Source: a virus. Taken from it: DNA of 64,000 nt. Under the pieces are notes generated by a model. It did not search any database, was not told where the DNA came from, and was given only the letters and a program-made list of their open reading frames with translations. Position 1 is the first letter of the stretch; every line of letters begins with the position of its first letter. The translations under genes and the position numbers were made by a program. Shown piece after piece: positions 6,351 to 48,334 of this stretch. Where the stretch lies: the IMG/VR virus record IMGVR_UViG_3300035696_000019, positions 1 through 64,000 of that record; one strand, written 5' to 3'.

Positions 6351-7721
6351 TTACGACACGGCGCCCTTCACATAGGAGGAGCTGTTGCCGTTGGTGCCGC
6401 CCCATGTCACGGTGTAACTGTTCAAAACGACCGCGTTGCCCGGAGAACCGCCAGGCCCGGCACTGTAGCCACCATTTCCGCTTCCAGACCCCGAGCCGCC
6501 AGCTACGCAAAGGTTGCTTGAGGCGCTACTGCCGGCACTACCGAGCGCGCCGCCATTACCGCCGTTGCCGCCATAGGCGCCATTTCCACTTTGCCCAGCG
6601 CTCCCGGAGGTTGCGCTTCCGTATCCCGCCCCCGCGCCCCCATTTCCGCCGGAGTAATAGGTATAGCTATGCGTTGTGATACAGTTATTGTGCGTGAGGA
6701 GGCCATTGGCGAAGAAGGTATGGGGGCCGTTTACGCGAAGTGTGTAGGTGCGAATTGCCCCCTCAATATACTCTACGGCAATGACCTTCACAGACTCTCC
6801 GCCTTGCGTCTGAATGGCACTCCCAATCACCAAGGGCACAACGGTGAGGTCGGGATAAGACGAGGCGGAGGCGTCGGGGTCGATGGATGTCCACGCTTGC
6901 GCTACGGGATCATAGAATGGGTGATCGTTCGTTGCGCCCGTGACCACGCCGTCACTCGTAGTGATGTTGTAATACCCGGCACGGAGTGGCTGAACCAGAT
7001 CCGTGACAACGACGACGCAATCGAGATGAGTCTCAAGGCTGTGAGCATAAATCGTTTCGCCAACTTCGATCGTCTCGATACGACGCTCGCCAAGCGGCGT
7101 CGAGACAAGAGTGCCCGCGATCAAACAACAATCGTTTGACTGGTTGTCATACCAGCCCTCTGCGCCACCACCACCACCGCCACCACCGCCACCAATGGTG
7201 CCATTGTTGATAATGGTCGTATTCATTCCCAGACCGATAGCGGGGCCGCCAGAGCCACCAGCGCCGCCAGAGCCGCCGCCACCAGCGCCACCAGCGCCGC
7301 CAGAACCACAACACCCCACCACTGTGCCATTGTTAGTGATACTGAATGACGACCCCGATGGGAGCGCGCATCCCGTCAGCGCCGCTGTGCCGGTCGAATT
7401 AGAGCCTAGCGTCACGCCGCTGTTGACCGTCAGCGTTGCCACAACGGGCTGTGTGCCATTCCACCCCGCTGCTGTAAGCGCGCTGGAAAGGTTGAATGGC
7501 GTGTTTGTGCTGGCACTGATTACGCCGTTATAAACGAAGTTCGACGACTTGCCGTAAAAGTTGGAAAGTGAAATAGGGCCAGATGCAACGCCGGCCAGAT
7601 TACGCACGGCCGCATCGTTCAATGAAATTTTTGCGCCTGCCGCATAGGTTCCCGGTGTGCTGGTATTAATTTCATTGGCGATGGTCTGGAGAGAGATTGG
7701 CCCGGAGGATGGAAGTGTCAT
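6351..7721 (-). CDS. glycine-rich gp38-like adhesin with inserted Hint domain
   Basis: N-terminal MTLPSSGPISL...ISLSNFYGKS, poly-Gly segments, position after an S74-bearing fibre; Hint domain CLIAGT..TNDHPF..FFANGLLTHN. Confidence 0.8.
   Translation of the reverse strand: MTLPSSGPISLQTIANEINTSTPGTYAAGAKISLNDAAVRNLAGVASGPISLSNFYGKSSNFVYNGVISASTNTPFNLSSALTAAGWNGTQPVVATLTVNSGVTLGSNSTGTAALTGCALPSGSSFSITNNGTVVGCCGSGGAGGAGGGGSGGAGGSGGPAIGLGMNTTIINNGTIGGGGGGGGGGAEGWYDNQSNDCCLIAGTLVSTPLGERRIETIEVGETIYAHSLETHLDCVVVVTDLVQPLRAGYYNITTSDGVVTGATNDHPFYDPVAQAWTSIDPDASASSYPDLTVVPLVIGSAIQTQGGESVKVIAVEYIEGAIRTYTLRVNGPHTFFANGLLTHNNCITTHSYTYYSGGNGGAGAGYGSATSGSAGQSGNGAYGGNGGNGGALGSAGSSASSNLCVAGGSGSGSGNGGYSAGPGGSPGNAVVLNSYTVTWGGTNGNSSSYVKGAVS
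6687..7127 (-). other. Hint domain (mini-intein or BIL-like, 147 aa, no endonuclease)
   Basis: Block A CLIAGTLV, block B TNDH (TxxH), block F/G TYTLRVNGPHTFFANGLLTHN. Confidence 0.88.
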
Positions 7722-10381: not shown

Positions 10382-13300
10382 TCAATAAAGTTGAATGCTT
10401 GAGAAAGCGCCCAATGGCGCCATCTGTGCCGAGTTCCATTGTGTATTGCTGCCGTCCCACTTGCCGACATACAGCTTGCGCGTCGTGCTGTTCTGCGCCA
10501 CGCTAATCAGGATGCTGTCCCCTGTCGCATAAGTGAAAGGCACATTGACGCGGTTGCCAAGCTGGTCTACCAGCGCAAATTCGCTGTTGGTCAGATCGTA
10601 AATGACCGACAGCGAATAACCGCTTCCCACCAGAGTGAAATAGGTGGCGTCAATCTGCTGCGACGGGCAAATCCACAGCGACATCGACATGGTGGCCGGC
10701 AGACCGATCGACCACGACACATACTGCGCGTCGGCCACCATCAAGCCTTGCGAGAAGCGCCCTGGCTGGTAGGTGATTGTGCCGCTAGTGGTGGCGATTA
10801 CATTGTTCAGACTGGTCAGGTTGCCGTTCATGCGCACGCCGTCAATCTGCGTGACGGGGTTGACGGCATTAATCGCGACGAACATCGACGCATTGGTTGA
10901 GCTATTACTGAGTGTGGGCGCCCACTGTTCTCCCACGGGGAGATTGCCCCAAGTGGAGTTGATATTCGCCCACGTCAGCGAGGTCGCCAATGTGGAGATG
11001 GCATTGACTGAGCATTGCAGGGTGTTTTGCGCGCGATAGGTAGTCCCCAGGTTGATCTCGAAGTCGTATTCGCTGGCAATGTTGGCGGCGGTAGACAGCA
11101 GTGCACCACCCGAAGCCTGAAGCGCGTGCAAAACGCCAGGGAAGTTTACTGCCGCCTGATCGGACGTATAAATCGTTGTTGTGTTGTTGGCCGCCACCAC
11201 GTTGACCGTGAGTGGCATGGGGTCGGCGCTGTAGATCCCCGGCATGTCGACCGCCTTGATCCACACGGTCAACGTTTGCGAGGCGCCCGCCGGCATGGTG
11301 TAGTTGGTGGTGTTCACTTGCGCGATGAACTGGCCCGTCGCCCATGAGGCGCCACTTCGCAACTCATAGCCCATCAGCGTCGATTCGGGGTTGGCCGACC
11401 ATGAGAAATTCAGCGTATTGCCCGACTGGATGTAGGCAAAATTCTGCACATCCTGCGGCACCGGGATCACGCATGTCGCCGTGGTCACATCGGCGCTGTA
11501 ATACCCTTCCAGGTTGATGGCGCGCACCATGTAGTAATAGGTGCCCGCCGCAGCGATGGTTGGATCAGTGAAGGATGTGCCGGAAAAGCCGGTCGTCAGA
11601 ACAGTGCTCGCACCCCAACTCGTGCCGCGTCGCACTTCATAGCCCGCCAAATCAAAGTCGGTATTATCCGCCCAAGTCAACAAGATGCCGTTTGGTGTAG
11701 TCGAACAGGTCAGCCCGGTCACGTCGGCGGGCGGCGTGGTCTTGACGGCGACCGCGCAATTAACGGTGCTGGTGGCGCTGTTGACGCCCAGAGGATTGGT
11801 GGAATAGACGCTGACTTCGTAGGCTCCAGGCGTGAGTCCGGTGATGTCGCACGAAGGCGAGGTGGTATTGATGGTTGTCCAGTTGGTTGTAACGGAGCCA
11901 GCCATCCGATAGGACACGGTGAATTGCGAGCAATTACTCGACCACGACACATGCATCTTGTAACCCAGATGCCCCACCGATGCCAGATAGGTCGAAGAAA
12001 TCGCCTGCAACTCGCTGACCGCCGACACGAAGTTGGGCGAGAGCACCGTGGTATTGGGCTGCACCAGTGTGTAGCCCTCTTCGATGTATCCGTATTTGCT
12101 CTGATTACTCTGCACGGCCACGATGGTGAACTGGTCGGCCTTGGTCGATTTCTGCTTGATGCTGACGACGCGCGCCAGCATTGGCTCCAGATCGGCTTCC
12201 ATCACCAGCCAGACCGTGTTTGGCATTGGTGTCTGCGTCAGTGCCCCGTAGCCCACCCACGACACGTTGCTCCACGTTCCTACGCCTTGGTCGAGTGTCA
12301 CGTCGGCATAGCTGCCGTCCGGCTGACGAATCGACAGGGTGGCCGGCACTTGCGTGATGGTGACGGGCGCGTCCAGCGCGGCGGAGGTGGTGGTGGCGCT
12401 GGTGATGCGACCGCCCATCCGCCGACCAGCACGATTCTCATCATGAATCCAGACCAATTCGCCCGGCAGCACCATTGCCGCTTCGATCCCCACGTCAAAC
12501 GTGATGGCGTCCGTCTCGTATTGCTCGGTGTAGAGAATCCATTGCCCGACGCGATGTGCCTGACCTCGACTGGTAGTGCCGAATGCCACGACATCTAGCT
12601 GGCGCACGCCGAATTGCTGGATCAGGGTGCGGTTTTCTACATATTCGATCTGCTGTTTGTAGTTTTGCGCCGGATCATTCCACGTCACATTAACGACGCT
12701 GTGGCGATCCTTGCGCGCAGTGCTGGTATAGGCGAACAGCCCATCGACGACGTTCGCCTGACTGAAAATGAACGATGCCGAGCCTGGTGCATCCTGCATG
12801 AAACTGACCGAGTTGCCATTCCAGAACGCCATGCCGCGAAATACTGAGCAGATGTCGCTGATGACCTTGTAGGCTTCGGCGCGCGACTGGATGGCAGTAT
12901 TGATTTGGAAGCGCGGTTCGGTGCCGCCGAACCCGTCGGGCACCATGCCGTCGCAGTATTGGCCGATGGCATAGAGTGTCGCGACATCGATCTGTGACGC
13001 CGATAGATATTGCCCCAATCCATAACGTGAGTTGGTCAACAGGTCATACAGCACCCAGGCGGGATTGGACGACGCCCCAGTGGTGAAGGCGCCATTCCAG
13101 ACACCGGTATACTGGCGCGTGGTCGGGTTGTAATTCGATGGAATCTGAATCACCAGACCATACACGTCATAGGAACGCGTCGGGATCGAATTGAATTGCG
13201 CGGCGTTGATGCGCACCCCTACCAGTGCCGAGTTGGGGTAGGACAACTGCTGACTGATGATCTCGTAATAGGAGTTGAGCCAGGTGTCGTTGCAGACGAA

Positions 13301-14398
13301 GCTGCTGGCCGAGTCGGCAGTCAGACGCACCATGCGGATCATACAGTTGGCGCCTGGCGTGATGGGGATCAGGTATTGCGCCTGATAGGTGGAACTGCTC
13401 TTGCCACTGATGGTCAGTGTCGAAGTGGCATCGACAAAAGCCCCGCCATTGGTGGAAAGCTGAAACTTGAACTGAACTGTGCCGCCCGAAATGTCGCCCG
13501 AGTTGGAGTCGGTCGTCGTCAGACTTGGAAGTGATACCACCATACGCACCGTGTCGGCTTCCGGGTTCTGCACCGTCAGCGTATAAGGCATCGCGTATTT
13601 GATTTGGACGTTTACATCAAAGGGCGTCTCCACGTCAGAGAAGCCACCCATCGGTGTTTGCCCCTGCGAGCCATTGCGTGAGGCCCAGGTGATACCGTTG
13701 GTGTTGTAACTACCATTCGAGTTGGTGCCAAAGAAGTTGTAGCTGCCATCCGAATTCTGGAATGGCGTGTCGTTGAAATAGATCGACTGCCCGCCGTTGA
13801 CCAGCCCGCCGATCTGCCCCTCGCCAAGCAGGTCGAGCAGCGTGATCATGGCGTTCGATTGCAGGCTGTCGGGCGCTTCCGTGGCGCCCCCATTCCCCTT
13901 CCCGCCGCCACCCGCGCCCGACACAACCGGATAGCGGTCGCGGTGGCCGCCGTTATGCACACGGATGCCGTCGGCGATAAAGGTGTGGTAAGTTTCGACG
14001 GTCAGATTCCACACCGGTTCGTAGCCAATCAGCTCTGCGCCAATAATCGGGCGCAAATGCCCCATGCCGTCGATCAGCGCGTCGTGAGGCGTCAGGCGTC
14101 CCATTTCCGCAAAATTTTCGTATTGATTCAGCACCCAATGATTCGGGGTGATGCCCTGCATTTCTCCGCGCCAGTATTTGACGCACAAGAGCGGCTGCGG
14201 ATCGGCGTGGTAATGCACGGCGGCGACTTTCGCAACATGCAGAAAGCCCTCCTCGTCAAACGCCATCACCTCGTCGCCCGTCTTGAGCAATTCGATGGCG
14301 ATGGTTTTGCCGTGCTGTAGTTGGATTTGCGTGCCTGCACGGAAGCAGCCGCCACCACCGCCAGCGCCAGAGATGGCAATCAGATCGTCACGTTTCAT
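10382..14398 (-). CDS. tail tip / host specificity protein J with N-terminal Hint domain
   Basis: EAPDSLQS, LLGEGQIGGL, YPNSALVG, SNPAWVLYDLLT, EPRF and FN3 repeats, all lambda gpJ-like. Confidence 0.93.
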   Translation of the reverse strand: MKRDDLIAISGAGGGGGCFRAGTQIQLQHGKTIAIELLKTGDEVMAFDEEGFLHVAKVAAVHYHADPQPLLCVKYWRGEMQGITPNHWVLNQYENFAEMGRLTPHDALIDGMGHLRPIIGAELIGYEPVWNLTVETYHTFIADGIRVHNGGHRDRYPVVSGAGGGGKGNGGATEAPDSLQSNAMITLLDLLGEGQIGGLVNGGQSIYFNDTPFQNSDGSYNFFGTNSNGSYNTNGITWASRNGSQGQTPMGGFSDVETPFDVNVQIKYAMPYTLTVQNPEADTVRMVVSLPSLTTTDSNSGDISGGTVQFKFQLSTNGGAFVDATSTLTISGKSSSTYQAQYLIPITPGANCMIRMVRLTADSASSFVCNDTWLNSYYEIISQQLSYPNSALVGVRINAAQFNSIPTRSYDVYGLVIQIPSNYNPTTRQYTGVWNGAFTTGASSNPAWVLYDLLTNSRYGLGQYLSASQIDVATLYAIGQYCDGMVPDGFGGTEPRFQINTAIQSRAEAYKVISDICSVFRGMAFWNGNSVSFMQDAPGSASFIFSQANVVDGLFAYTSTARKDRHSVVNVTWNDPAQNYKQQIEYVENRTLIQQFGVRQLDVVAFGTTSRGQAHRVGQWILYTEQYETDAITFDVGIEAAMVLPGELVWIHDENRAGRRMGGRITSATTTSAALDAPVTITQVPATLSIRQPDGSYADVTLDQGVGTWSNVSWVGYGALTQTPMPNTVWLVMEADLEPMLARVVSIKQKSTKADQFTIVAVQSNQSKYGYIEEGYTLVQPNTTVLSPNFVSAVSELQAISSTYLASVGHLGYKMHVSWSSNCSQFTVSYRMAGSVTTNWTTINTTSPSCDITGLTPGAYEVSVYSTNPLGVNSATSTVNCAVAVKTTPPADVTGLTCSTTPNGILLTWADNTDFDLAGYEVRRGTSWGASTVLTTGFSGTSFTDPTIAAAGTYYYMVRAINLEGYYSADVTTATCVIPVPQDVQNFAYIQSGNTLNFSWSANPESTLMGYELRSGASWATGQFIAQVNTTNYTMPAGASQTLTVWIKAVDMPGIYSADPMPLTVNVVAANNTTTIYTSDQAAVNFPGVLHALQASGGALLSTAANIASEYDFEINLGTTYRAQNTLQCSVNAISTLATSLTWANINSTWGNLPVGEQWAPTLSNSSTNASMFVAINAVNPVTQIDGVRMNGNLTSLNNVIATTSGTITYQPGRFSQGLMVADAQYVSWSIGLPATMSMSLWICPSQQIDATYFTLVGSGYSLSVIYDLTNSEFALVDQLGNRVNVPFTYATGDSILISVAQNSTTRKLYVGKWDGSNTQWNSAQMAPLGAFSSIQLY
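13952..14347 (-). other. Hint domain (BIL-like, 132 aa) in gpJ
   Basis: CFRAGTQI...ITPNHWV...VWNLTVETYHTFIADGIRVHN, followed by Gly. Confidence 0.88.
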
Positions 14399-39271: not shown

Positions 39272-40834
39272 ATGAGCAAAGAAATCATCACCATCGCCAG
39301 CAACGCCACATTGGGCAAGCTGCACAACTCCTCGCGCGAAGCAAAACTGGAGGCGCAGCGCATCCTGTCGTATGTGGTTGCCGGCGCCGAAATGAGCGAG
39401 TCGTTCAAGCGCGGCACCTGGGATGGTCGCAGTTCTTTCTTCGACTACCGCAGTGGCACGTTCCCGGCGGGCTTTGTGCATTTCCTGGCGCACGGTCTGC
39501 GTCGTGCCGGTTTCCAGACCAACTGTGTTGCGCGCCCCTTCCCCGAGCCAAAAGGTCAGAAGCGCGCCAAGGTCGATGCCTTCCCCGAAGACCCGCGTTA
39601 TGACTATCAACATCAGGTGGTAGAGAAACTACTGACGCACGGCAAGATCATCGCGCGCGTGGCAACAGGCGGCGGCAAATCAAGGATTGCCAAACTGGCC
39701 TTTGCCGCCATCCGTCGCCCGGCGCTGTTTCTCACCACGCGCTCCATTCTCATGTATCAGATGAAGGATGCGGTTGAGCGCGACATGGGCATCGAGGTCG
39801 CGGTGTTGGGCGATGGTCAGTTCGGCGTGGTCAAGACAGACGCCAATGGCGACGAACGTCGCTTCATCAAGATGTTCAACGTCGGCATGGTGCAGACGTT
39901 GGTATCGCGTCTGGCGCTCCCCTGCCCCGACGATTCGGTCGAAGTGCAGAATAAACAGATGGCAATTCGCAAGCAGACCATCGACCTACTTGGCAAGTTT
40001 GAACTGGTGATCGGCGAAGAGGCGCACGAAGCCTCCGGCAACAGCTATTACGAAATTCTGCAACATTGCACCAGCGCGCATTACCGCCTGGCTATGACCG
40101 CCACGCCATTCATGAAGGAGAACGAAGAGTCGAACATGCGCCTGATGGCCGCATTCGGCCCGATCGGCATCCATGTCAGCGAGCAGACGCTTATCGAGCG
40201 CGGCATTCTGGCAAAGCCCTATTTTAAGTATGTCGATCTAACCGAATGCCCGAAGCATCTGTCGCGCGGCACGGGTTGGCAGGCCGCTTACCGTCTCGGA
40301 ATCGTCACGCACGCACAGCGCAACCGCATCATTGTGGACGAAGTGAAGCGCGCCAGTCGCTACGGATTGTCGTCAATGGTATTGGTGCAGCAAACCAAAC
40401 ATGGCGATCTACTGCGCGACTTGATGACGGAAGCTGGTCTGCGCGTCGAGTTCATCCGTGGCGAAAATGATCAGAAAGGTCGCAAGGCGGCACTTGCGCG
40501 TCTGAGCAACGGCGAGATCGACGTGCTGATTGGCACCACAATTCTCGACGTGGGCGTGGATGTGCCGGCGGTGGGGTTGGTTATTCTGGCAGGCGGGGGC
40601 AAGGCAGAGATCGCTCTGCGTCAGCGGATTGGCCGGGGCTTGCGCGCCAAGAAGAATGGCCCGAACATGTGCTTCATTCTCGACTTCAGCGACGCTCAGA
40701 ACAGCTACCTGAAAGATCATGCCACGCAACGTCTGAATGTGGTGCGCAGCACGCCGGGGTTTGTCGAAGGGGTGTTGAGCGGCGCCGACTTTGATTATGA
40801 GGGACTTGGTTTCGAGAAATTGACTTCAAAATAA
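39272..40834 (+). CDS. superfamily 2 helicase
   Basis: ATGGGKS, GEEAH (DExH variant), TATP, DVGVDVP, QRIGRGLR. Confidence 0.93.
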   Translation: MSKEIITIASNATLGKLHNSSREAKLEAQRILSYVVAGAEMSESFKRGTWDGRSSFFDYRSGTFPAGFVHFLAHGLRRAGFQTNCVARPFPEPKGQKRAKVDAFPEDPRYDYQHQVVEKLLTHGKIIARVATGGGKSRIAKLAFAAIRRPALFLTTRSILMYQMKDAVERDMGIEVAVLGDGQFGVVKTDANGDERRFIKMFNVGMVQTLVSRLALPCPDDSVEVQNKQMAIRKQTIDLLGKFELVIGEEAHEASGNSYYEILQHCTSAHYRLAMTATPFMKENEESNMRLMAAFGPIGIHVSEQTLIERGILAKPYFKYVDLTECPKHLSRGTGWQAAYRLGIVTHAQRNRIIVDEVKRASRYGLSSMVLVQQTKHGDLLRDLMTEAGLRVEFIRGENDQKGRKAALARLSNGEIDVLIGTTILDVGVDVPAVGLVILAGGGKAEIALRQRIGRGLRAKKNGPNMCFILDFSDAQNSYLKDHATQRLNVVRSTPGFVEGVLSGADFDYEGLGFEKLTSK

Positions 40835-40879
40835 ATGCAGACTAATATTAAGCTATGAATAAATTTTGTGGAGATAAAC

Positions 40880-41149
40880 ATGGCAGGTAGACATTCTGTG
40901 GCGGCGTCTTCTGAAGTGTTGGAAATGCTCAAGGTATTGTGCGACCGCTACAACGTCAGCCAAATAGACGTGTTTGACGGGGTGTTCGACCAGATGGACG
41001 AGACGAAGCTGGAAGAGTTTTTGCAGCAACGTCGCTTGGCGAAGTCCGAACTGAAACAGCGATACCACGCGGTCAAACGTCAACTCAACAATCTCTCGCC
41101 CGAAGAGTTGGAGCGCACGCTGACTTTGCTGCAAGAGAAGCAGGCGTGA
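40880..41149 (+). CDS. small putative DNA-binding protein
   Basis: GGAG RBS before ATG 40880; RHH-like N-terminus. Confidence 0.6.
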   Translation: MAGRHSVAASSEVLEMLKVLCDRYNVSQIDVFDGVFDQMDETKLEEFLQQRRLAKSELKQRYHAVKRQLNNLSPEELERTLTLLQEKQA

Positions 41150-41403
41150 CACGCAGTCAGTTCGACGACTGGATTCGTTCGGTCGATGCGAATGCGGTGT
41201 CAGCCTGGGCGAAGTCGTTACAAGGCGAGGACGCTACCTACCGTTCGTTCCTCGCCTTTGTTTCGACACGGCTGGAGTATCCCGCCGGGTCGCCCGACGC
41301 CGAGTCAGATGACGAGGCGGAATGGATGACCCGCTTGAAGAACTGGTGGGAGACGGGCCGACCTGATCTGGATGCGCCAGCGACGGAAGCTGACGCCTGG
41401 TAG
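41146..41403 (+). CDS. hypothetical acidic protein
   Basis: Overlaps the upstream stop (GTGA). Confidence 0.55.
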   Translation: MTRSQFDDWIRSVDANAVSAWAKSLQGEDATYRSFLAFVSTRLEYPAGSPDAESDDEAEWMTRLKNWWETGRPDLDAPATEADAW

Positions 41404-41493
41404 TTCGAGGAGTAGTTGAGCAAATAAGCGATTACTCGTATTCTTTTCTCAATTCATCAGCCGGGCGAGTGACGGCCTGACAGGTCAGACGAC

Positions 41494-41526
41494 AAACGGG
41501 AGCCTTCGGGTTCCCGTTTTTGTTTT
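41494..41526 (+). terminator. rho-independent terminator of the helicase operon
   Basis: AAACGGGAGCC-ttcg-GGTTCCCGTTTTTGTTTT. Confidence 0.85.
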
Positions 41527-41549
41527 GAGGCTTGGAGCCTTGGGCTTCA

Positions 41550-41660
41550 GGGCTGAAAGGGTGATGTTTTGAGGATTTGGCTCCGGGGTGAAAGGGTGAT
41601 GTCTGGAAGGTCGAAGACAGTGGAGGGTGGGCCTCCTCTACATAAAAATTTTTCTAAGAC
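41550..41660. other. probable genome terminus / packaging initiation region
   Basis: Abrupt compositional switch at ~41640, convergent transcription, AAAAATTTTT tract and a TGAAAGGGTGATGT direct repeat. Inference. Confidence 0.4.
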
Positions 41661-41753
41661 ATGAGCTATTCAGCACGCACGCGCTACGGATACAAAAAAT
41701 CGACCACACATATATGCGCGGTCGATTAGTTTATATTCGCTCGCGATTATTAT

Positions 41754-42284
41754 TTATTCTATCGTGTAGATATATTCTATCGTCGGATATATCGACGTTT
41801 TATCATCGATGCATTGCATGATATCGTTCATGCATTGTGTAGTTATTATTCCGTCCTTATTCAGATTCTCTAAAGCGTCAAAAGCATAAGAGATATTCCG
41901 CTGTTTTTGATTGATCAAAGCAGTCATTTTTCGCGCTGTCGATTCTACGATCGACTGATACACAAGCGCGTAAAAGATAACCAGCGTCCTTTCACACACA
42001 GTCGCGTCATACGCGCGTTTCTTGCTCGCGAGCATATCAAGGTATTCCGATGCATACGCGCGCGCACCAGTCAGTGTTTCTGTAGTCGCTACGCGGTCGG
42101 AGATGTAACCGCTCGACTTTACTTTGACGTAGTAGCGTGACTCCTGCTCACTCCAAAAGATCCACGCTATATCATGCGCACTGGATACATGCGCGACGAT
42201 AGAATCAGACTTTGCGGTAAAGAAAATTTTGCGCGCTGCATTAGCAATCATTGCGAGACGTTGCGCTTTAGTCATGGTGCTCAT
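41754..42284 (-). CDS. early hypothetical protein
   Basis: 176-aa ORF with AAAGGA RBS; poor in Gly and Pro. Confidence 0.7.
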   Translation of the reverse strand: MSTMTKAQRLAMIANAARKIFFTAKSDSIVAHVSSAHDIAWIFWSEQESRYYVKVKSSGYISDRVATTETLTGARAYASEYLDMLASKKRAYDATVCERTLVIFYALVYQSIVESTARKMTALINQKQRNISYAFDALENLNKDGIITTQCMNDIMQCIDDKTSIYPTIEYIYTIE

Positions 42285-42308
42285 TTTAATATCCTTTCAG
42301 AATTAAAA

Positions 42309-42342
42309 ATTAGTGACTGAATAATATTATTCAGTCACTAAT
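42309..42342. repeat. perfect 34-bp palindrome
   Basis: ATTAGTGACTGAATAAT|ATTATTCAGTCACTAAT. Confidence 0.95.
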
Positions 42343-42348
42343 GAGTTA

Positions 42349-43131
42349 TTATTTAGATTGGAATAGTCGCGCTACTTCACGCGCGATGTCGGAGTCCAGC
42401 AAAGTGATACTGTCTTTTGCTGCACCTTTTTTGATGCTCGCAACACCGATAAAGGACAGCATCATGCGCGTGCTACTGCACTGAGTCGATGCTGTCGACT
42501 CGCTGCAGTTGTGCAGTCGCTTTATATCCAGCGTCTGATCCATCGCATCGTATGTGATGCTGCTGCAAATCGTCATGCGCGCGCTTTTATTATCGACATA
42601 GTTCAAACGAATCAGATTCGATATGATAGAGCGCGAATAACCATCAAAACCGGATTTAATACCACTCGCGATAGCAAAAATCGCTTTGCGGATTTTTTGC
42701 ACTGCGTAAATTGCAACAAAATCCGCGCTGGACTTGTCTGTGATGCTGATTTTTTGCGCAAGCGCAAGCAGGTCGACATCCAGATCAAGCATCTTCTTAA
42801 TCGCGAGCTTTGCAGCGCTTTTTTCAAAAGCTTTACGCTCTGTAATAAAGCTGTGCGTCTGATTCGCGCACGGTGCGTGATCCGCGCGAGCTTGAAGCGA
42901 CTCTATAAGAGCGGAATAAATCATGTCGATTTTGTTTTCGTTCTTTTTTGCTGCGAGTGTCGCAGCGCGCTTTGCTGCGATTTCCGCTTTTTGCGTATCG
43001 GTCAAAGCTACTTTTTTAGCAGTAGTCTTTTTGACGCTTTTCTTTTCAGCAGTAGCGGAAACAACCGCATCGATAACGGTATCAACTGCTGTATCCACTG
43101 CTGTATCCACTGCTACGGTTTGCTTTTCCAT
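42349..43131 (-). CDS. early hypothetical protein (Lys/Ala-rich N-terminus)
   Basis: GGAG RBS before MEKQTV; upstream TTGTAG..TGTATAGT promoter at ~43203-43231. Confidence 0.75.
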   Translation of the reverse strand: MEKQTVAVDTAVDTAVDTVIDAVVSATAEKKSVKKTTAKKVALTDTQKAEIAAKRAATLAAKKNENKIDMIYSALIESLQARADHAPCANQTHSFITERKAFEKSAAKLAIKKMLDLDVDLLALAQKISITDKSSADFVAIYAVQKIRKAIFAIASGIKSGFDGYSRSIISNLIRLNYVDNKSARMTICSSITYDAMDQTLDIKRLHNCSESTASTQCSSTRMMLSFIGVASIKKGAAKDSITLLDSDIAREVARLFQSK

Positions 43132-43489
43132 GATGCATATCTCCAGATAACGCGCAAAGGTGCGCACATCGATGCAGCGCGTTAGTGCGCTGTCGATGTA
43201 GTCACTATACACGCTTACTTTTCATCTACAAAAAATATGTAGCTGAAAACTTGACCTAGATCAATTTACAGAATGAGTTACAAATAACGCGCGGATTAAC
43301 AACAAACGAACTGGATACCTGAGCGAATTACTCGGAATCGCAGAGCAAAGTTGATTTATGTCAAACAAACGAACGGTGTCGGAGTGAAAACGCGGTCTAG
43401 CTACTTGACAACCGCTAAAAGCAGCTCAAAAACGCTGTTTTTCTTGATATAAGTCAACAAAATCGACCGGTTTGACCAATTTTTAAGCA

Positions 43490-43825
43490 GCCCTGGACGG
43501 TTGCGAGACGCAATGAAGCGGTTCCGACACTTTCCCTAGGGTTTCCGACGGTTTTCGGTATTTCTCCTACCCCTAGGGCACCTTCCCTAGCCCTTACCAG
43601 TCCTCGGGTGGCACCTAACCAGTCCTCGGGCGGCCCCTAGGCAACCACCCCAAGGCACAAAGGGAATCCCCAAGGCTCCAGGCATCAAGCCCGAGGTGTC
43701 ACCAGGCGTCGGGCGGCTCCTCACCAGGCAGGCAATGGCAACGCCTAGGCGTCAGGCAATAAAAAACCCTAGGTGTATCCTCGGGCGTGAGAAAGTGAAA
43801 GTCCCGAGAGTTGCCCGAGGAGATA
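43490..43825. repeat. CCTNGG-dense non-coding spacer
   Basis: About a dozen CCTAGG, CCTCGG/CCGAGG and CCAAGG sites in ~330 bp. Confidence 0.85.
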
Positions 43826-43860
43826 AATCCATAAACCGCACGGTGGCGGTTTCTGCTGCT

Positions 43861-44157
43861 TTAGAATTCATCCAAAGCATTTGCAATTAGCGTTTTGAAC
43901 ATAACGCGCGCTTGTCTGTAGTCGCGATTATTGAAAACGAACGCGGTGCGGAATGCGTCCTTTTCCATCAGCGCGCTATTTGCGTGAGAGATATTAGAAC
44001 AACCTTTTGCGTCAAAAATTGCAACAATGTGCGTGTATTCGTCCACGGTAGAAAAATCAAAGTGCTGACCAGCGATAACCGCGAACCGGTTACCCATGAT
44101 GGATTTAGCGGATTCCATCATCGCGGAATATTGCTCAAACGTCGTTATAACTCGCAT
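43861..44157 (-). CDS. early hypothetical protein
   Basis: Own promoter (44193-44221), AAAGG RBS and a downstream hairpin (~43833-43852). Confidence 0.75.
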   Translation of the reverse strand: MRVITTFEQYSAMMESAKSIMGNRFAVIAGQHFDFSTVDEYTHIVAIFDAKGCSNISHANSALMEKDAFRTAFVFNNRDYRQARVMFKTLIANALDEF

Positions 44158-44192
44158 GGTGCAGACCTTTCGTGTTTGGTTTCGATGAAATA

Positions 44193-44221
44193 ATTATCGC
44201 AACCGGATATTGGCACTTCAA
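44193..44221 (-). promoter_or_regulatory. sigma70-type early promoter
   Basis: TTGAAG-17 bp-GATAAT. Confidence 0.75.
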
Positions 44222-44426
44222 GAGAGTTAAACACGATTGGTTTGGGCGTTTTAAACCGTAGGTGTGGCCTAGCGATCCATAAGCACCGCCTAGGTGTTGT
44301 GGCCTAGGCATGGTCAGGCAGAGGATTGGCCTAGCGATCAATAGGCAGTGCCGAGGAATTGAGTGAGATTAATACCTAGGTGTTGTGGCCTGGAGATGGA
44401 TGGGCAGTGCCTAGGAGGATGCGAAG

Positions 44427-44523
44427 TAAACCGCACATAGGCGGTTTATCTGGCTACTCCAGATCACGCTCAGCAAGTCGTGCGCCCTCCAAATCATCCA
44501 CACCAAACACGGTGCGCGGTTCG
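44427..44523 (-). ncRNA. candidate small RNA or micropeptide transcript
   Basis: Promoter at 44530-44558 and hairpin at 44427-44448 with no convincing ORF between them. Confidence 0.35.
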
Positions 44524-44529
44524 CACATA

Positions 44530-44558
44530 ATTATCACAACCGGATATTGACGTTACAA
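44530..44558 (-). promoter_or_regulatory. sigma70-type early promoter
   Basis: TTGTAA-17 bp-GATAAT; spacer nearly identical to the 44193 promoter. Confidence 0.7.
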
Positions 44559-44653
44559 GCAATCAGCGTTGGGAGATTTGAACGAATTTTCGCTCGCCCG
44601 AGGAGAACCCGAGGAAGAATTAAAACAACCACTCATAGGAGTGGTCTGGTTGA

Positions 44654-45088
44654 TTACCATGGGAGAATGCAGTTTTCACCGTCGTCATCATCGAACTGGA
44701 TTTCATCCAGATCAGCGAAATAAACCGCGCGACCAAATTTTTCATGCATATGCAAGCGGTCATCATCAAAGCACAATTGCTCTACCGAGAGAATGATTGC
44801 ATCGTGTTGAATGTATTCCGCGCTGTAGTGCTTGCTTAAACACTCATTCAATTCCGCGTAGTCGGAACCCAACGCGAATTGTTCTTCAATCAGTTCTCCA
44901 GTCACGATGTTAATCGTGCGGTAAAACATGACATCGTTGAAGTAATCCGTTTCACCGTCGTCATTAGTCATGCTGACCACGCTGACCACGTATGACGCGC
45001 TGCGATTTCCAGCGTTGACGTAGCAACACTCAAACAGCGGTATAGATTTAAACTGACTGCTTGCACGGTCGATAGCGTTTTGTTCCAT
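44654..45088 (-). CDS. acidic early protein
   Basis: MEQNAIDR..., strongly Asp/Glu-rich; promoter at 45130-45158 and hairpin at ~44628-44645. Confidence 0.75.
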   Translation of the reverse strand: MEQNAIDRASSQFKSIPLFECCYVNAGNRSASYVVSVVSMTNDDGETDYFNDVMFYRTINIVTGELIEEQFALGSDYAELNECLSKHYSAEYIQHDAIILSVEQLCFDDDRLHMHEKFGRAVYFADLDEIQFDDDDGENCILPW

Positions 45089-45129
45089 GATGTTACCTTT
45101 CATTCGGTAGCGAGTTATCAGACGCATTT

Positions 45130-45158
45130 AGTATCCATGACCGGTATTGGCACTTCAA
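45130..45158 (-). promoter_or_regulatory. sigma70-type early promoter
   Basis: TTGAAG-17 bp-GATACT. Confidence 0.7.
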
Positions 45159-45529
45159 GCGATCTACTTGGGAGCTTTCTACTCAGGGAGCACCCATCGT
45201 CCGGTAGGATACCGTTTCCTCGGGCGCTGACGCCCCTAGGAGACGCCCAAACACTCTAGAGCTACCCAACCCTTCCCCTGCTAGCGAAAACGCCTAGGAA
45301 GCGCTCTGTGTGCCCGAGAACATTTCACCTATCCCTACGTCGCCTAGGTGTCGGTAGGCAACGCCAACACCCAACCAGGGATGCGCCGCACTCAACCAGA
45401 CCTCGGGCGGCTCCTATCCAGGCTTCGGGCGGCAGAGAAAACGCCTTGGGGTCAGAGTGTGTTGAAACGCCCGACGGTGCGCTGCGTCGGGTGAGGTGAG
45501 TGACCGCGCGATGACGCGGTCAAGATCGA

Positions 45530-45811
45530 TCAGTATTCGATTTCCAGCGTATCGGACATTTCCTCACCGTAACCAAAATAATTGTCCGTTTGATCGCGCA
45601 CCGTCGCGAGCAGCGCACTTGCTGCGTAAAGATCAACGGTGGTCATGGTGACTTTGATGTTGCGCTCGTTTTCACCATCGGTCTGAAAATCCAGGCGGAT
45701 GTCCGCGACCACACCGTCGTTATCGCGGATCAGTTGGGCACAAACATAGTTGTCGTAGTCCGGGTTAAATTCCGTGATCTTCACGGTTCCTTTGCGGGGG
45801 ATATGTGTCAT
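45530..45811 (-). CDS. acidic early protein
   Basis: GGAG RBS; promoter at 45846-45874 and hairpin at ~45501-45522. Confidence 0.75.
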   Translation of the reverse strand: MTHIPRKGTVKITEFNPDYDNYVCAQLIRDNDGVVADIRLDFQTDGENERNIKVTMTTVDLYAASALLATVRDQTDNYFGYGEEMSDTLEIEY

Positions 45812-46164
45812 GGTGGTTTACTCCGTGGTGGGTTTCGATACTCACAGTATCGCGCAGCGGAATAGGCTTAGAAAGCGAAAAACAGGCTGTTTGCGCAATT
45901 TTTCACTCATGCGCCCGCGAGGTGATGGGTTGAATATTGCTCGCAAAGTGCATTTATTGGCATTTTCCACCGCGCTCAACTGTGACACTCGGCAGGGTGT
46001 CACATAGAGGAGAAATGCACCCCTCGGGTGTCAATCGTGGTCTGAGATGGGTCAGGCAGCGCCTCGGGCTGGCCTGGAGTGGAATAGGTAGTGAGTGCGC
46101 TATGGCGTGGCCTAGGTGCAGAGAGGCAGCAGAACAACCGGACTGATGACCGGTCGGGTGTTGG

Positions 46165-46359
46165 TTACGGCATACAGGGATCAACCCTGGCATCGGAAAC
46201 CCAACCGAGTTGCATGGCGTGTTGCTCGGACTTTGGCAGTGCGTCGAACTGGGCGCGCGTCATGTCATTGCATTCGATGATGGCTTCGATCAGGTCGTCG
46301 TCGCCCAGACGACGGTTGAACTCGGCGTCGATCACATCTCCGTCACGGTAGGTTTCCAT
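46165..46359 (-). CDS. small acidic early protein
   Basis: GGAG RBS; promoter at 46392-46420. Confidence 0.7.
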   Translation of the reverse strand: METYRDGDVIDAEFNRRLGDDDLIEAIIECNDMTRAQFDALPKSEQHAMQLGWVSDARVDPCMP

Positions 46360-47280
46360 GATTTTATGCTCCGGTCGGTTGGTATGAGCACAGCATGACC
46401 ACGCAGTATTGGCATGAAAACACGTTTTAGAGGGATTTCGCGCAATCTTTCATTGTCGTTTTCGAGGGTGTAGGGGCATAAAATGCTAAAACGGCGGATT
46501 TTGAGCGGCAAGGGTGTCCCATGCCGAGGGGTTCGGCTGATGGCAGGGTTTCCCGATTCCGTGGTATCTCTGTGGCCGAGGGCTTTCGACTCCCGCCAGT
46601 AGACGGTAGGCACCAGGTGAGCGCCGCAGGCGCGAGCCGGTGCCGTTCTACTCCCGAGGATATCACCAGGCCGAGGGCTTTCCCTCTCCGCTACCTAGGA
46701 TCAGTCCTACCACTCCCTAGGGGTCAATCCCTCTGCCAACCATGCGCCTTCGGCGCCAACTGGCACTGGGAACACCCTTTCCAGTCTATAGTTGGCAGGG
46801 AATTTTTATACCGTGGATGAATTTTTCCCTCGCGCGCGCGCATTTAGAAAAAACCGACGAAGCGAGAGGAGGAGCCGGATGACGACGAGCGAAGCGAGGA
46901 GGAAGAAGGCTCCGTAGCGAAGCGAAGGAGGTTTTTTCCAGAGAGGAAGTAAATCAAGAGAGTCGAAACTCAGAAACAAGCCCCCCTCCCCCAAACGCTC
47001 TATGAAACTGAGCACCAGTAACGACTTGCTTGTCACTAGCGGGAGAGGGAAACCGTTTCAAGGCGTTGAGCTTAGTCGTGTCGATGGCGAAACAACAGAG
47101 CGAACCCAGAAACAAGCCCCCAGAAGAAAGAGTAAAGCGAGAGAACAAATCGCTCAACATCCCGAGACGGATAGTAAGTCACGGGTGATTTATCTGTCAA
47201 GTGGAGTAGGTGAGACCAATGCAGGTCGGTGAGAGGGGTAGATGGCGACAATGAGTGGAATACCGCCGCCCGCCAGTCAC

Positions 47281-47340
47281 CCCACTGTTGACCCACTGTT
47301 GACCCACTGTTGACCCACTGTTGACCCACTGTTGACCCAC
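47281..47340 (+). repeat. 11-bp tandem repeat (CCCACTGTTGA) x5 plus partial copy
   Basis: Seen directly; an extra copy lies at ~47403. Confidence 0.95.
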
Positions 47341-48334
47341 CAGTTACTCCTCTATAGCCGCCAGCAACTCTCGCTTCACTCCCACCACCACCACACTATG
47401 AACCCACTGTTGATTCACTGTCGCTCTCACCATTGCCCCCACTATCCCGCTATTCCATCTCTCGTCATTCCCCACTCTTCTCCCGATCGTTCTCTTTCTC
47501 TCCGGTATCTTATGGTCTGGTCATGCATACTCACTGGCCTGGAGATAGACAACCAGTTTGGCCTTGTAATGTTCGGGCAGCGTTTGTGCGTTCCCTGATG
47601 TGTGATTGGATCAGATGTTGATCTGGATGGTTTGGCGCGCTGTTATGGATTGCTACGTCTTGGGAATGGATATCTGGATTGGTCGGTTCGGGTAGTCTTT
47701 TCGCTTACGGTTTGTGATTGCCCGAGGCGGTTTCATTTGATCGAGGAAGGGGTTCGGGAGCCGCTATTGTGTTTGATTACGAGAGAAGTTCTCGGGAACC
47801 GGTGTTGGAGGATTTCCCGTTCCATTCATTTGACTTTTCCATTGATTTCCCCTTGTTTTGTCTTTGTGGGGTTTCATGGGGAGTCAGCCGTATGTTTAAT
47901 CATGAATTGTTTTGTTTTATATTTAATATTTATATATACGGTGGGAAGAGGTATGGGGAGTCGTCGGCTCCCAGTGTTCGCGGTTTTGGCGAAACGCTTG
48001 TAATCGCGTTGTGCGCGCTTGTTTTATGCTCTGGTATATCTCGGTATACCAGCGATTCGGGGAACGCTTCTATGGTTGTTTCTGTGGTCGGAATCGCTAT
48101 ATCACTTGCATCTATGGTCTGGATAGACTCAGATTGCGGATTGTGACTCGGGTGTCAATTTGTTTCATTGCCAAATTCCCCTTTAGAATCATAGGCTTAT
48201 AACGCTTATTGCGTTAATCCTCGGCGTCGAATTGAGAAAAACGCCTGAAAATGCAAAAAGTGTCATTTGCACACAAGCCCGAGGGGTGATTCAGCAATTG
48301 GAAAAGGCGACCGGGAGTTCCGATCGCCTTTACT

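Follow-up and report, generated by a model that had tools for sequence, protein, structure and literature searches.

What is a Hint domain doing in the middle of a phage adhesin? The question is raised by a virus record of 105,923 bp from an uncultured phage (IMG/VR IMGVR_UViG_3300035696_000019, estimated 98% complete), whose first 64,000 nucleotides are the window analyzed here. A minus-strand gene in the window encodes a precursor in which a Hint domain separates an N-extein from a C-extein, and the two exteins resemble gp38, an adhesin of T-even phages. Nowhere are the loops that determine the host range of a phage better understood than in adhesins of the gp38 type, which also serve in host-range engineering. 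We know of no gp38 with an inserted domain. A first-pass annotation of the sequence had described the domain and its gp38-like host, doubted that it splices as a canonical intein, and proposed that it controls host range after translation. Here, the insert is assigned to the bacterial intein-like (BIL) class, the exteins are modeled as halves of one gp38-type fold, and self-excision with ligation is tentatively favored as the fate of the domain.

Structure and class of the insert

The domain lies exactly where the first-pass annotation had placed it, with its N-junction at ..SNDC198/C199LIAGT.. and its C-junction at ..LLTH344N345/N346C347ITTH.. (slashes mark junctions; coordinates are given in Table 1). 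It matches the 147-position hidden Markov model (HMM) of its own family without interruption and is of mini-Hint size, without a homing endonuclease. Cys199 occupies the Cys1 nucleophile position, and His334 (block F) is present. Within the TxxH motif, His267 is aligned with the block-B His in the TVNH of Tetrahymena BIL2, and this BIL2 residue is presumably the one described as catalytic H69 (PMC8616854). Cys1, TxxH, and the terminal His-Asn are also intact in the two nearest Hint-bearing relatives, P0133 and P0161. The family HMM and TIGR01443 both place the end of the domain at Asn345, so the +1 residue is Asn346, and the early doubt about canonical splicing was well founded.

Table 1. Coordinates in the window of the adhesin gene, its Hint domain, the flanking fiber genes, and the second Hint domain
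Feature	Position	Strand	Remarks
Adhesin gene, 456-aa precursor	6351..7721	-	198-aa N-extein + 147-aa Hint + 111-aa C-extein
N-terminal ~60-aa domain	7542..7721	-	conserved across the ~300-aa family; three short helices in the model
10-Gly run, aa 177-186	7164..7193	-	aligned with the long Gly-rich motif of S16 gp38
Cys198, N-extein -1 residue	7128..7130	-	carbonyl would carry the thioester
Hint domain, BIL-type, 147 aa, aa 199-345	6687..7127	-	family HMM, model, and structure matches
Block B Thr264-Asn-Asp-His267 (TxxH)	6921..6932	-	Thr and His invariant in alignment A1
His344-Asn345, C-terminal His-Asn; Asn cyclization site	6687..6692	-	
Asn346 (+1, non-nucleophile) and Cys347 (+2)	6681..6686	-	
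C-extein, aa 346-456, 31% Gly	6354..6686	-	belongs to the modeled gp38-like fold
Upstream tail fiber, 419 aa	7718..8977	-	C-terminal Peptidase_S74 intramolecular chaperone domain
Downstream tail fiber, 848 aa	3713..6259	-	N-terminal ~60 residues in common with the 419-aa fiber
Second Hint domain, BIL-type, aa 18-149 of central tail fiber J	13952..14347	-	..GGGGG/CFRAGT ... RVHN/GGHRD..

The insert alone was modeled using AlphaFold2 with a predicted local distance difference test score (pLDDT) of 95.3 and a predicted template-modeling score (pTM) of 0.89. Foldseek aligned the model at a probability of 1.00 to >40 Hint structures (VIA-align Z 15–23), including BIL2 of Tetrahymena BUBL1 (6Y75/6TMM; template-modeling score [TM] 0.86–0.88) and a BIL of Clostridium thermocellum (2LWY; TM 0.79–0.88). 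By VIA-align, BIL2 was the best structural match (Z 23.2, root-mean-square deviation [rmsd] 1.9 Å, 148 residues), and the C. thermocellum BIL (Z 20.5, rmsd 1.4 Å, 134 residues), mini-inteins (Z 17–20), and Hedgehog 1AT0 (Z 17.0) also matched. A profile of the insert family searched against PDB sequences matched 6TMM at E 3.8e-21 and 2LWY at E 4.7e-20, with inteins beginning at 7e-9. Library models were less responsive. TIGR01443 (intein_Cterm, cutoff 15.6) scored 18.5 on the isolated insert and 14.7 on the whole protein. Pfam Hint_2 on the single sequence (20.6–23.3 bits; gathering score 28.4) and Pfam Intein_splicing (15.5–19.1; cutoff 35.8) stayed below their cutoffs. On the model and its matches, the evidence that the Hint fold is real is decisive, and the original identification of the domain is upheld. 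A recent foreign insertion of the domain was considered and ruled out, because its GC content (0.565) and its GC content at third codon positions (GC3, 0.64) are like those of the exteins and the neighboring genes.

BIL domains are normally found in hypervariable regions of non-conserved surface proteins, end in His-Asn, and often have no C-flank nucleophile (PMC7765530, PMC5874633). By fold, sequence profile, and family signature, the insert is a member of the BIL class and not a canonical intein, because it has no +1 nucleophile and no endonuclease and because BIL structures and sequences rank first among its matches. Neither a Cys, Ser, or Thr at +1 nor a conserved insertion site, as expected of a canonical intein, is found. 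The family profile served as a proxy for the A-type motifs of Amitai et al. 2003, and it placed the C. thermocellum BIL ahead of every intein. The insertion site is a hypervariable loop that matches a hypervariable segment of gp38 (PMC6851490), the kind of location in which BILs occur. The first-pass annotation had regarded this location as anomalous by the standard of inteins, a view that no longer applies, since a hypervariable loop is usual for a BIL.

The gp38-like host protein

A search of 5.8 billion proteins found 591 homologs of the adhesin. The best 119 of these are mostly 278–340 aa in length, with a few longer ones of up to 787 aa, and match well only over the first ~190 adhesin residues. 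None of the 119 carries the Hint domain, so the Hint-less alleles that had been anticipated in relatives are the rule. In an alignment with 25 homologs, the N-terminal domain is conserved, the body is beta-rich, and variable loops alternate with conserved Gly runs. The loop after the 10-Gly run, the longest of these runs, is where the Hint domain sits. It varies in length and sequence in every aligned homolog, and Hint-less homologs contain Cys-rich versions of it.

Pfam GP38 (PF05268) did not match the adhesin, whole or split. Three relatives score above its cutoff of 25, namely P0017 (34.2), P0029 (30.1), and P0161 (35.7). The best PDB match of a profile of Hint-less relatives was phage S16 gp38 (6F45_D), at E 8e-4 with heavy composition bias. 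The full-length AlphaFold2 model has a pLDDT of 85, lower in the C-extein, and a pTM of 0.57. Both exteins in this model align by VIA-align to S16 gp38 6F45_D (Z 16.4, 228/248 residues, model range 2–456) and to PP01 gp38 9V85_C (Z 14.6, rmsd 3.2 Å, 193 residues), and sequence identity in these fold matches is 24%. Over its last 22 residues, the C-extein shares 68% identity with the C-terminal end of P0009, a Hint-less homolog. In the model, the N- and C-exteins are genuine halves of one gp38-type adhesin, because the homologs, the GP38-matching relatives, the profile, the model matches, and the shared C-terminus all point to one fold. The gp38-like nature of the host protein, as first described, is confirmed at this level.

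The attachment domain of S16 gp38 consists of three helices, its long Gly helix is helix 3, and loops at its distal end are determinants of host range (PMC6851490). By analogy, the N-terminal ~60-aa domain of the adhesin is a probable fiber-attachment domain. It contains three ..ISL.. pseudo-repeats. This stretch may mirror the three-fold symmetry of a trimeric fiber tip. The counterpart of the 10-Gly run in S16 gp38 is helix 3 (GGGGGGGG 151-158), and this alignment would seat the Hint domain in the loop after the long Gly helix. From the published S16 topology, the loop is likely distal, receptor-facing, and hypervariable. The insert had been described as lying between two poly-Gly segments. 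It does occupy a loop between Gly-rich motifs and follows the 10-Gly run, and the sequence after it is Gly-rich with no second pure poly-Gly run. A role of the adhesin in binding the receptor and the fiber tip is suggested by the position of its gene between two fiber genes of the tail module. It is the one gp38-like gene in the phage genome.

The Hint family and its nearest members

An exhaustive HMMER search of 1.84 billion cluster representatives found 2999 relatives of the insert, 385 of them at E <= 1e-10. Family statistics were compiled from 307 domain copies in the best 149 of the 2999 proteins. Cys1 is invariant (307/307), and 284/307 copies end in His-Asn. At +1, 197 copies (64%) have Lys, 21 have Arg, and 28 (9%) have a nucleophile (Cys, Ser, or Thr). 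Many family proteins carry 2–7 Hint copies with 1–5 residues between them, and many stop one to three residues past the Hint domain (..HNK-stop). P0121–P0132 are large proteins made up almost wholly of 4–7 tandem Hints joined by linkers of 1–5 residues (HN-K-GG-C, HN-KC-C, HN-RS-C), and Pro-rich, collagen-like tails are frequent at their ends. Of 80 related IMG/VR loci, 33 have an interrupted Hint; these are inteins of the endonuclease type, sit in enzymes, and without exception carry Cys or Ser at +1. Loci with an uninterrupted Hint have Lys or Arg at +1 in 27 cases and Cys in 11.

The adhesin Hint belongs to a sub-type with Cys at −1. Across 173 non-tandem copies of the family, a Cys is found within 8 residues past the domain in 27/53 copies with Cys(−1) versus 22/120 copies without (Fisher p 2e-5, uncorrected for relatedness). 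Lys is the +1 residue in 25% of the copies with Cys(−1) versus 76% of those without. The spacing of the downstream Cys among relatives is +1 to +5. In the sub-type, this Cys (1–8 residues past the domain) is often the last residue of the protein (..NLDGC, ..SNNC, ..ADDC, ..WC).

No gp38-like proteins with a Hint were found besides the adhesin, P0133, and P0161; the Hints of the latter two are the nearest relatives of the adhesin Hint (44% and 40% identity). P0133 is encoded on a 3.8-kb ENA contig, shares 51% identity with the adhesin over the N-extein and the same insertion point, and has an apparent end at ..HN/NLDGC. P0161, encoded by a 220-kb IMG/VR phage, has a complete gp38-like body followed by the Hint domain and an end at ..HN/SNNC-stop, and the next gene is on the opposite strand. 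These two proteins extend 4–5 residues past the Hint domain. The P0161 gene (L002:8001-9407) adjoins a weak QueC-like gene and unannotated genes, with no obvious tail module. Pfam detects no GNAT or other partner enzyme gene there or beside the adhesin gene.

Further examples were sought in several sequence collections. Using tblastn against 50,697 phage records, the whole adhesin matched six records over its N-terminal 60–135 aa only. The insert gave weak matches (E 2e-6 to 4e-3) in these records, to terminase, helicase, and comparable genes and to no tail genes, and the Hint-only family member P0205 gave no match. A related-locus search of IMG/VR with the insert or P0133 as query returned nothing. 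A word-indexed homolog search with the Hint region only returned two weak relatives, its sensitivity being too low. The Hint start was also searched as a degenerate DNA pattern for CC(L/F)I(A/S)GT.(V/I).TP, which found only the P0161 phage in IMG/VR, and the P0161 phage again with one unrelated toxin-like protein in JGI metagenomes. Judged by sequence, the combination of a gp38-like protein and a Hint domain is rare, because the pattern scans of both collections gave no further cases. Two other phage proteins in IMG/VR have a poly-Gly run immediately ahead of a BIL-type Hint. At L023:2365-3507, a tail protein (phrog_2048) has 11 Gly followed by a C-terminal Hint. The 803-aa protein at L022:2152-4560 contains four poly-Gly runs, and its Hint is internal, with Lys as the next residue.

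A second BIL-type Hint domain is encoded by the same phage, in the central tail fiber J (gpJ; 10382–14398, minus strand). gpJ begins with a 17-aa leader, followed by the 132-aa Hint (..SGAGGGGG/CF), the SGAGGGG motif again, and the usual J N-terminus. The gpJ Hint scores 53 bits against the family HMM. An origin of the adhesin Hint as a duplicate of it was ruled out, as the two domains are barely alignable. The phage genome contains exactly two Hint domains, those of the adhesin and gpJ. The presence of two divergent copies in two tail-tip proteins, with no other Hint in the genome, argues for function rather than parasitism.

Predicted processing of the adhesin

Judging by its junction residues, the adhesin Hint would be able to form a thioester at Cys198-Cys199 and to cleave at Asn345 through a succinimide, both intramolecular reactions. 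The predicted boundary residue excludes the standard transesterification, in which a +1 side chain is the acceptor. Two solutions are described for BILs. In A-type BIL splicing, the amine freed by Asn cyclization attacks the thioester (as cited in PMC5874633). In BIL2, the thioester is attacked by a Lys side chain, and the N-extein becomes joined to this amine (PMC8616854). A-type BILs are described as splicing or cleaving without a C-flank nucleophile in PMC5874633 and PMC7765530, both citing Dassa 2004.

We tentatively favor, with slightly less than an even chance, post-translational self-excision of the Hint domain with ligation of the BIL type. Cys199, with Thr264 and His267, would undergo an N-S acyl shift to form a thioester on Cys198. 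Asn345 of the terminal His-Asn would then cyclize, cutting the C-junction and freeing the alpha-amine of Asn346. This amine, possibly aided by the Cys347 thiol, would attack the Cys198 thioester. The product would be an adhesin of ~309 aa with ..NDC-NC.. at the loop, and cleaved N- and C-fragments would be side products. Subtraction of 147 from 456 gives the size of the Hint-less relatives, about 300 aa. Ligation is favored because the exteins share one fold, which would hold the thioester and the new Asn346 amine together. We infer both that these reactions occur and that ligation outweighs cleavage.

Several points weigh against self-excision with ligation. The main counter-evidence comes from P0133 and P0161, whose C-terminal Hints would fit cleavage or transfer better than splicing. 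The +1 residue of the adhesin is Asn, not the usual Lys of the family, and the C-extein, which is of low complexity, is weakly supported at the sequence level. Ligation efficiency is uncertain even for characterized A-type BILs, because the sources disagree. A-type BILs cleave their C-terminus and cannot ligate according to PMC7765530, and can splice according to PMC5874633.

Cleavage only is an unlikely outcome. One or both junctions would be cut and the Hint domain released, leaving a two-chain adhesin (aa 1–198 and 346–456) whose chains would stay together through the polyglycine sandwich, possibly with the aid of a Cys198-Cys347 disulfide. Both cuts have their catalytic residues in place, there is no +1 nucleophile, and A-type BILs are said in PMC7765530 to cleave without ligating. 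The association of Cys(−1) with a downstream Cys in the counts given above and the Cys-rich loop versions of Hint-less homologs would also suit a disulfide-linked product. However, a nick beside the central Gly helix may destabilize the fold, and exteins that co-fold, as they do in the model, would favor proximity ligation.

It is improbable that the Hint domain is retained unprocessed at the mature tip, whether to serve there in structure or binding or simply because it is tolerated as a passenger. Its termini are spatially adjacent, so it could be seated in a loop without breaking the host fold, and the full-length model shows it as a separate domain (pTM 0.57, low-pLDDT linkers). The many tandem arrays of the family are also compatible with retention, since processing at their joints would leave only tiny linkers. 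Retention is opposed by the preservation of all catalytic residues in the adhesin, P0133, and P0161, and a 16-kDa domain on receptor-facing loops would mask the adhesin.

There is a slim chance that the Hint domain is a built-in switch of the receptor face, or that it provides a thioester-armed covalent tip, and that together with the gpJ BIL it represents a general device for maturation of the adsorption organelle. As a switch, it would mask the distal loops, and slow or redox- or metal-gated removal would arm the virion only after release. Such gating is conceivable because Cys198/Cys199 and Cys347 flank the domain and because its closest relative, BIL2, is Zn-activated. In a covalent tip, the thioester could bond the adhesin tip to the fiber or to an amine on the host surface.

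Transfer as in Hedgehog or BUBL proteins is quite doubtful. The Cys198 thioester would be captured by an outside nucleophile, and the N-part would be joined covalently to a target. Proposed targets include small molecules and Lys residues, which could belong to the fiber, a different virion protein, or a molecule on the host surface. BIL2, whose solved structure is the closest, links to other proteins through a Lys isopeptide (PMC8616854), the C-terminal Hint of P0133 and P0161 gives them a Hedgehog-like layout, and Lys dominates at +1 in the family. In the adhesin, however, the C-extein is integral to the gp38 fold, no sterol-recognition or other adaptor region is present, and no partner enzyme genes were detected near the adhesin gene using Pfam.

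A canonical class 1-like intein that splices via Cys347, through a boundary at ..HNN/C or a +2 thiol reaching the thioester, is doubtful to the same degree: Cys1, TxxH, and His-Asn are present with a Cys two residues past Asn345, TIGR01443 passes on the isolated insert, mini-inteins are structurally close, and P0161 has Ser at +1, but both HMMs end at Asn345, P0133 has the same HN/N without a Cys directly next to it, the Pfam intein model is far under its cutoff, there is no endonuclease, the site is hypervariable rather than conserved, and the spacing of the downstream Cys is not constant among relatives.

If the domain processes itself within a host-range loop, adhesin maturation would gain a post-translational stage that has not been looked for before, and the Hint domain may exert post-translational control of host range, as first proposed. 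The case also points to a large and barely characterized family of BIL-type Hint domains in phages and bacteria. The size of this family, its predominant +1 Lys, its arrays of up to seven domains, and its frequent C-terminal placement are traits of note. Its chemistry, in which an amine is ligated with no nucleophilic side chain involved, makes the family interesting for the design of protein ligation tools.

Genome setting

A lambda-like siphophage tail module, wholly on the minus strand, has its host-recognition end at the adhesin locus. The module encodes, in order, the tape measure, minor tail proteins, a tail assembly protein, and the central tail fiber J. J is followed by fibre-like proteins of 184 aa and 277 aa, the 419-aa fiber, the adhesin, and the 848-aa fiber. 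The adhesin ATG overlaps the stop of the upstream fiber gene (ATGA) and is preceded by GGAGG 4 nt upstream, and from this arrangement the adhesin gene appears to be translationally coupled to the 419-aa fiber gene. The 848-aa and 419-aa fibers begin with the same ~60 residues (MQNFT..WRTDLS.LY.LT), a common N-terminus that suggests one anchor for two alternative fibers. The Peptidase_S74 domain that ends the 419-aa fiber is of the self-cleaving chaperone type. No DNA-level match to the tail-fiber block was found using megablast against the 50,697 phage records. GC content falls from ~0.57 to 0.48–0.53 over positions 40001–48000 of the window (2-kb windows).

Comparison with known systems

BILs, gp38 adhesins, and variable loops are each known. 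A literature search of incomplete coverage found no report of a Hint or BIL domain within a phage receptor-binding protein, whether tail fiber or adhesin.

The C. thermocellum BIL (2LWY) shares with the adhesin Hint a mini-Hint fold, an N-terminal Cys, and a C-terminal His-Asn. A-type BILs likewise have no C-flank nucleophile, no endonuclease, and a hypervariable site, and several can occur in one protein of the family. Unlike A-type BILs such as 2LWY, the adhesin Hint is encoded by a phage and lies inside a receptor-binding adhesin. In place of the usual +1 Lys of the family, its sub-type has Cys(−1) and a second Cys close behind the domain.

BIL2 of Tetrahymena thermophila BUBL1 (6TMM/6Y75) has a ..H(P/R)FYDP..W.S(I/V).P.. 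segment in common with the adhesin Hint. BIL2 is eukaryotic and lies between ubiquitin-like domains, whereas the adhesin Hint lies between two halves of one adhesin fold. BIL2 is Zn-activated and passes its N-extein to a Lys side chain, whereas the adhesin Hint has no Lys near its junction. The mini-inteins gp41-1, Npu DnaB, and NrdJ-1 (Z 19–20) share the Hint fold, Cys1, TxxH, and His-Asn. Inteins have Cys, Ser, or Thr at +1, occupy conserved enzyme sites, and often have a present or former homing endonuclease; the adhesin Hint has none of these three features.

The gp38 proteins of S16 (6F45) and PP01 (9V85) have, like the adhesin, an N-terminal attachment domain, a body of Gly motifs and hypervariable segments, and a gene position next to fiber genes. 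Unlike the phages that encode T-even gp38, the phage here is a siphophage with a lambda-like tail, and the poly-Gly runs of its adhesin are much longer. The Hog domain of Hedgehog shares the Hint fold and an N-S acyl shift at Cys. Its layout of a cargo followed by a C-terminal Hint resembles that of P0133 and P0161, whereas the adhesin Hint is internal. Hog has a sterol-recognition region and no terminal Asn, whereas the adhesin Hint has no such region and ends in His-Asn followed by a Gly-rich C-extein. Peptidase_S74 in the adjacent fiber is also a self-removing module in a phage receptor-binding protein. Its likeness to the adhesin Hint is functional only, as its fold and chemistry are unrelated and its position is always C-terminal.

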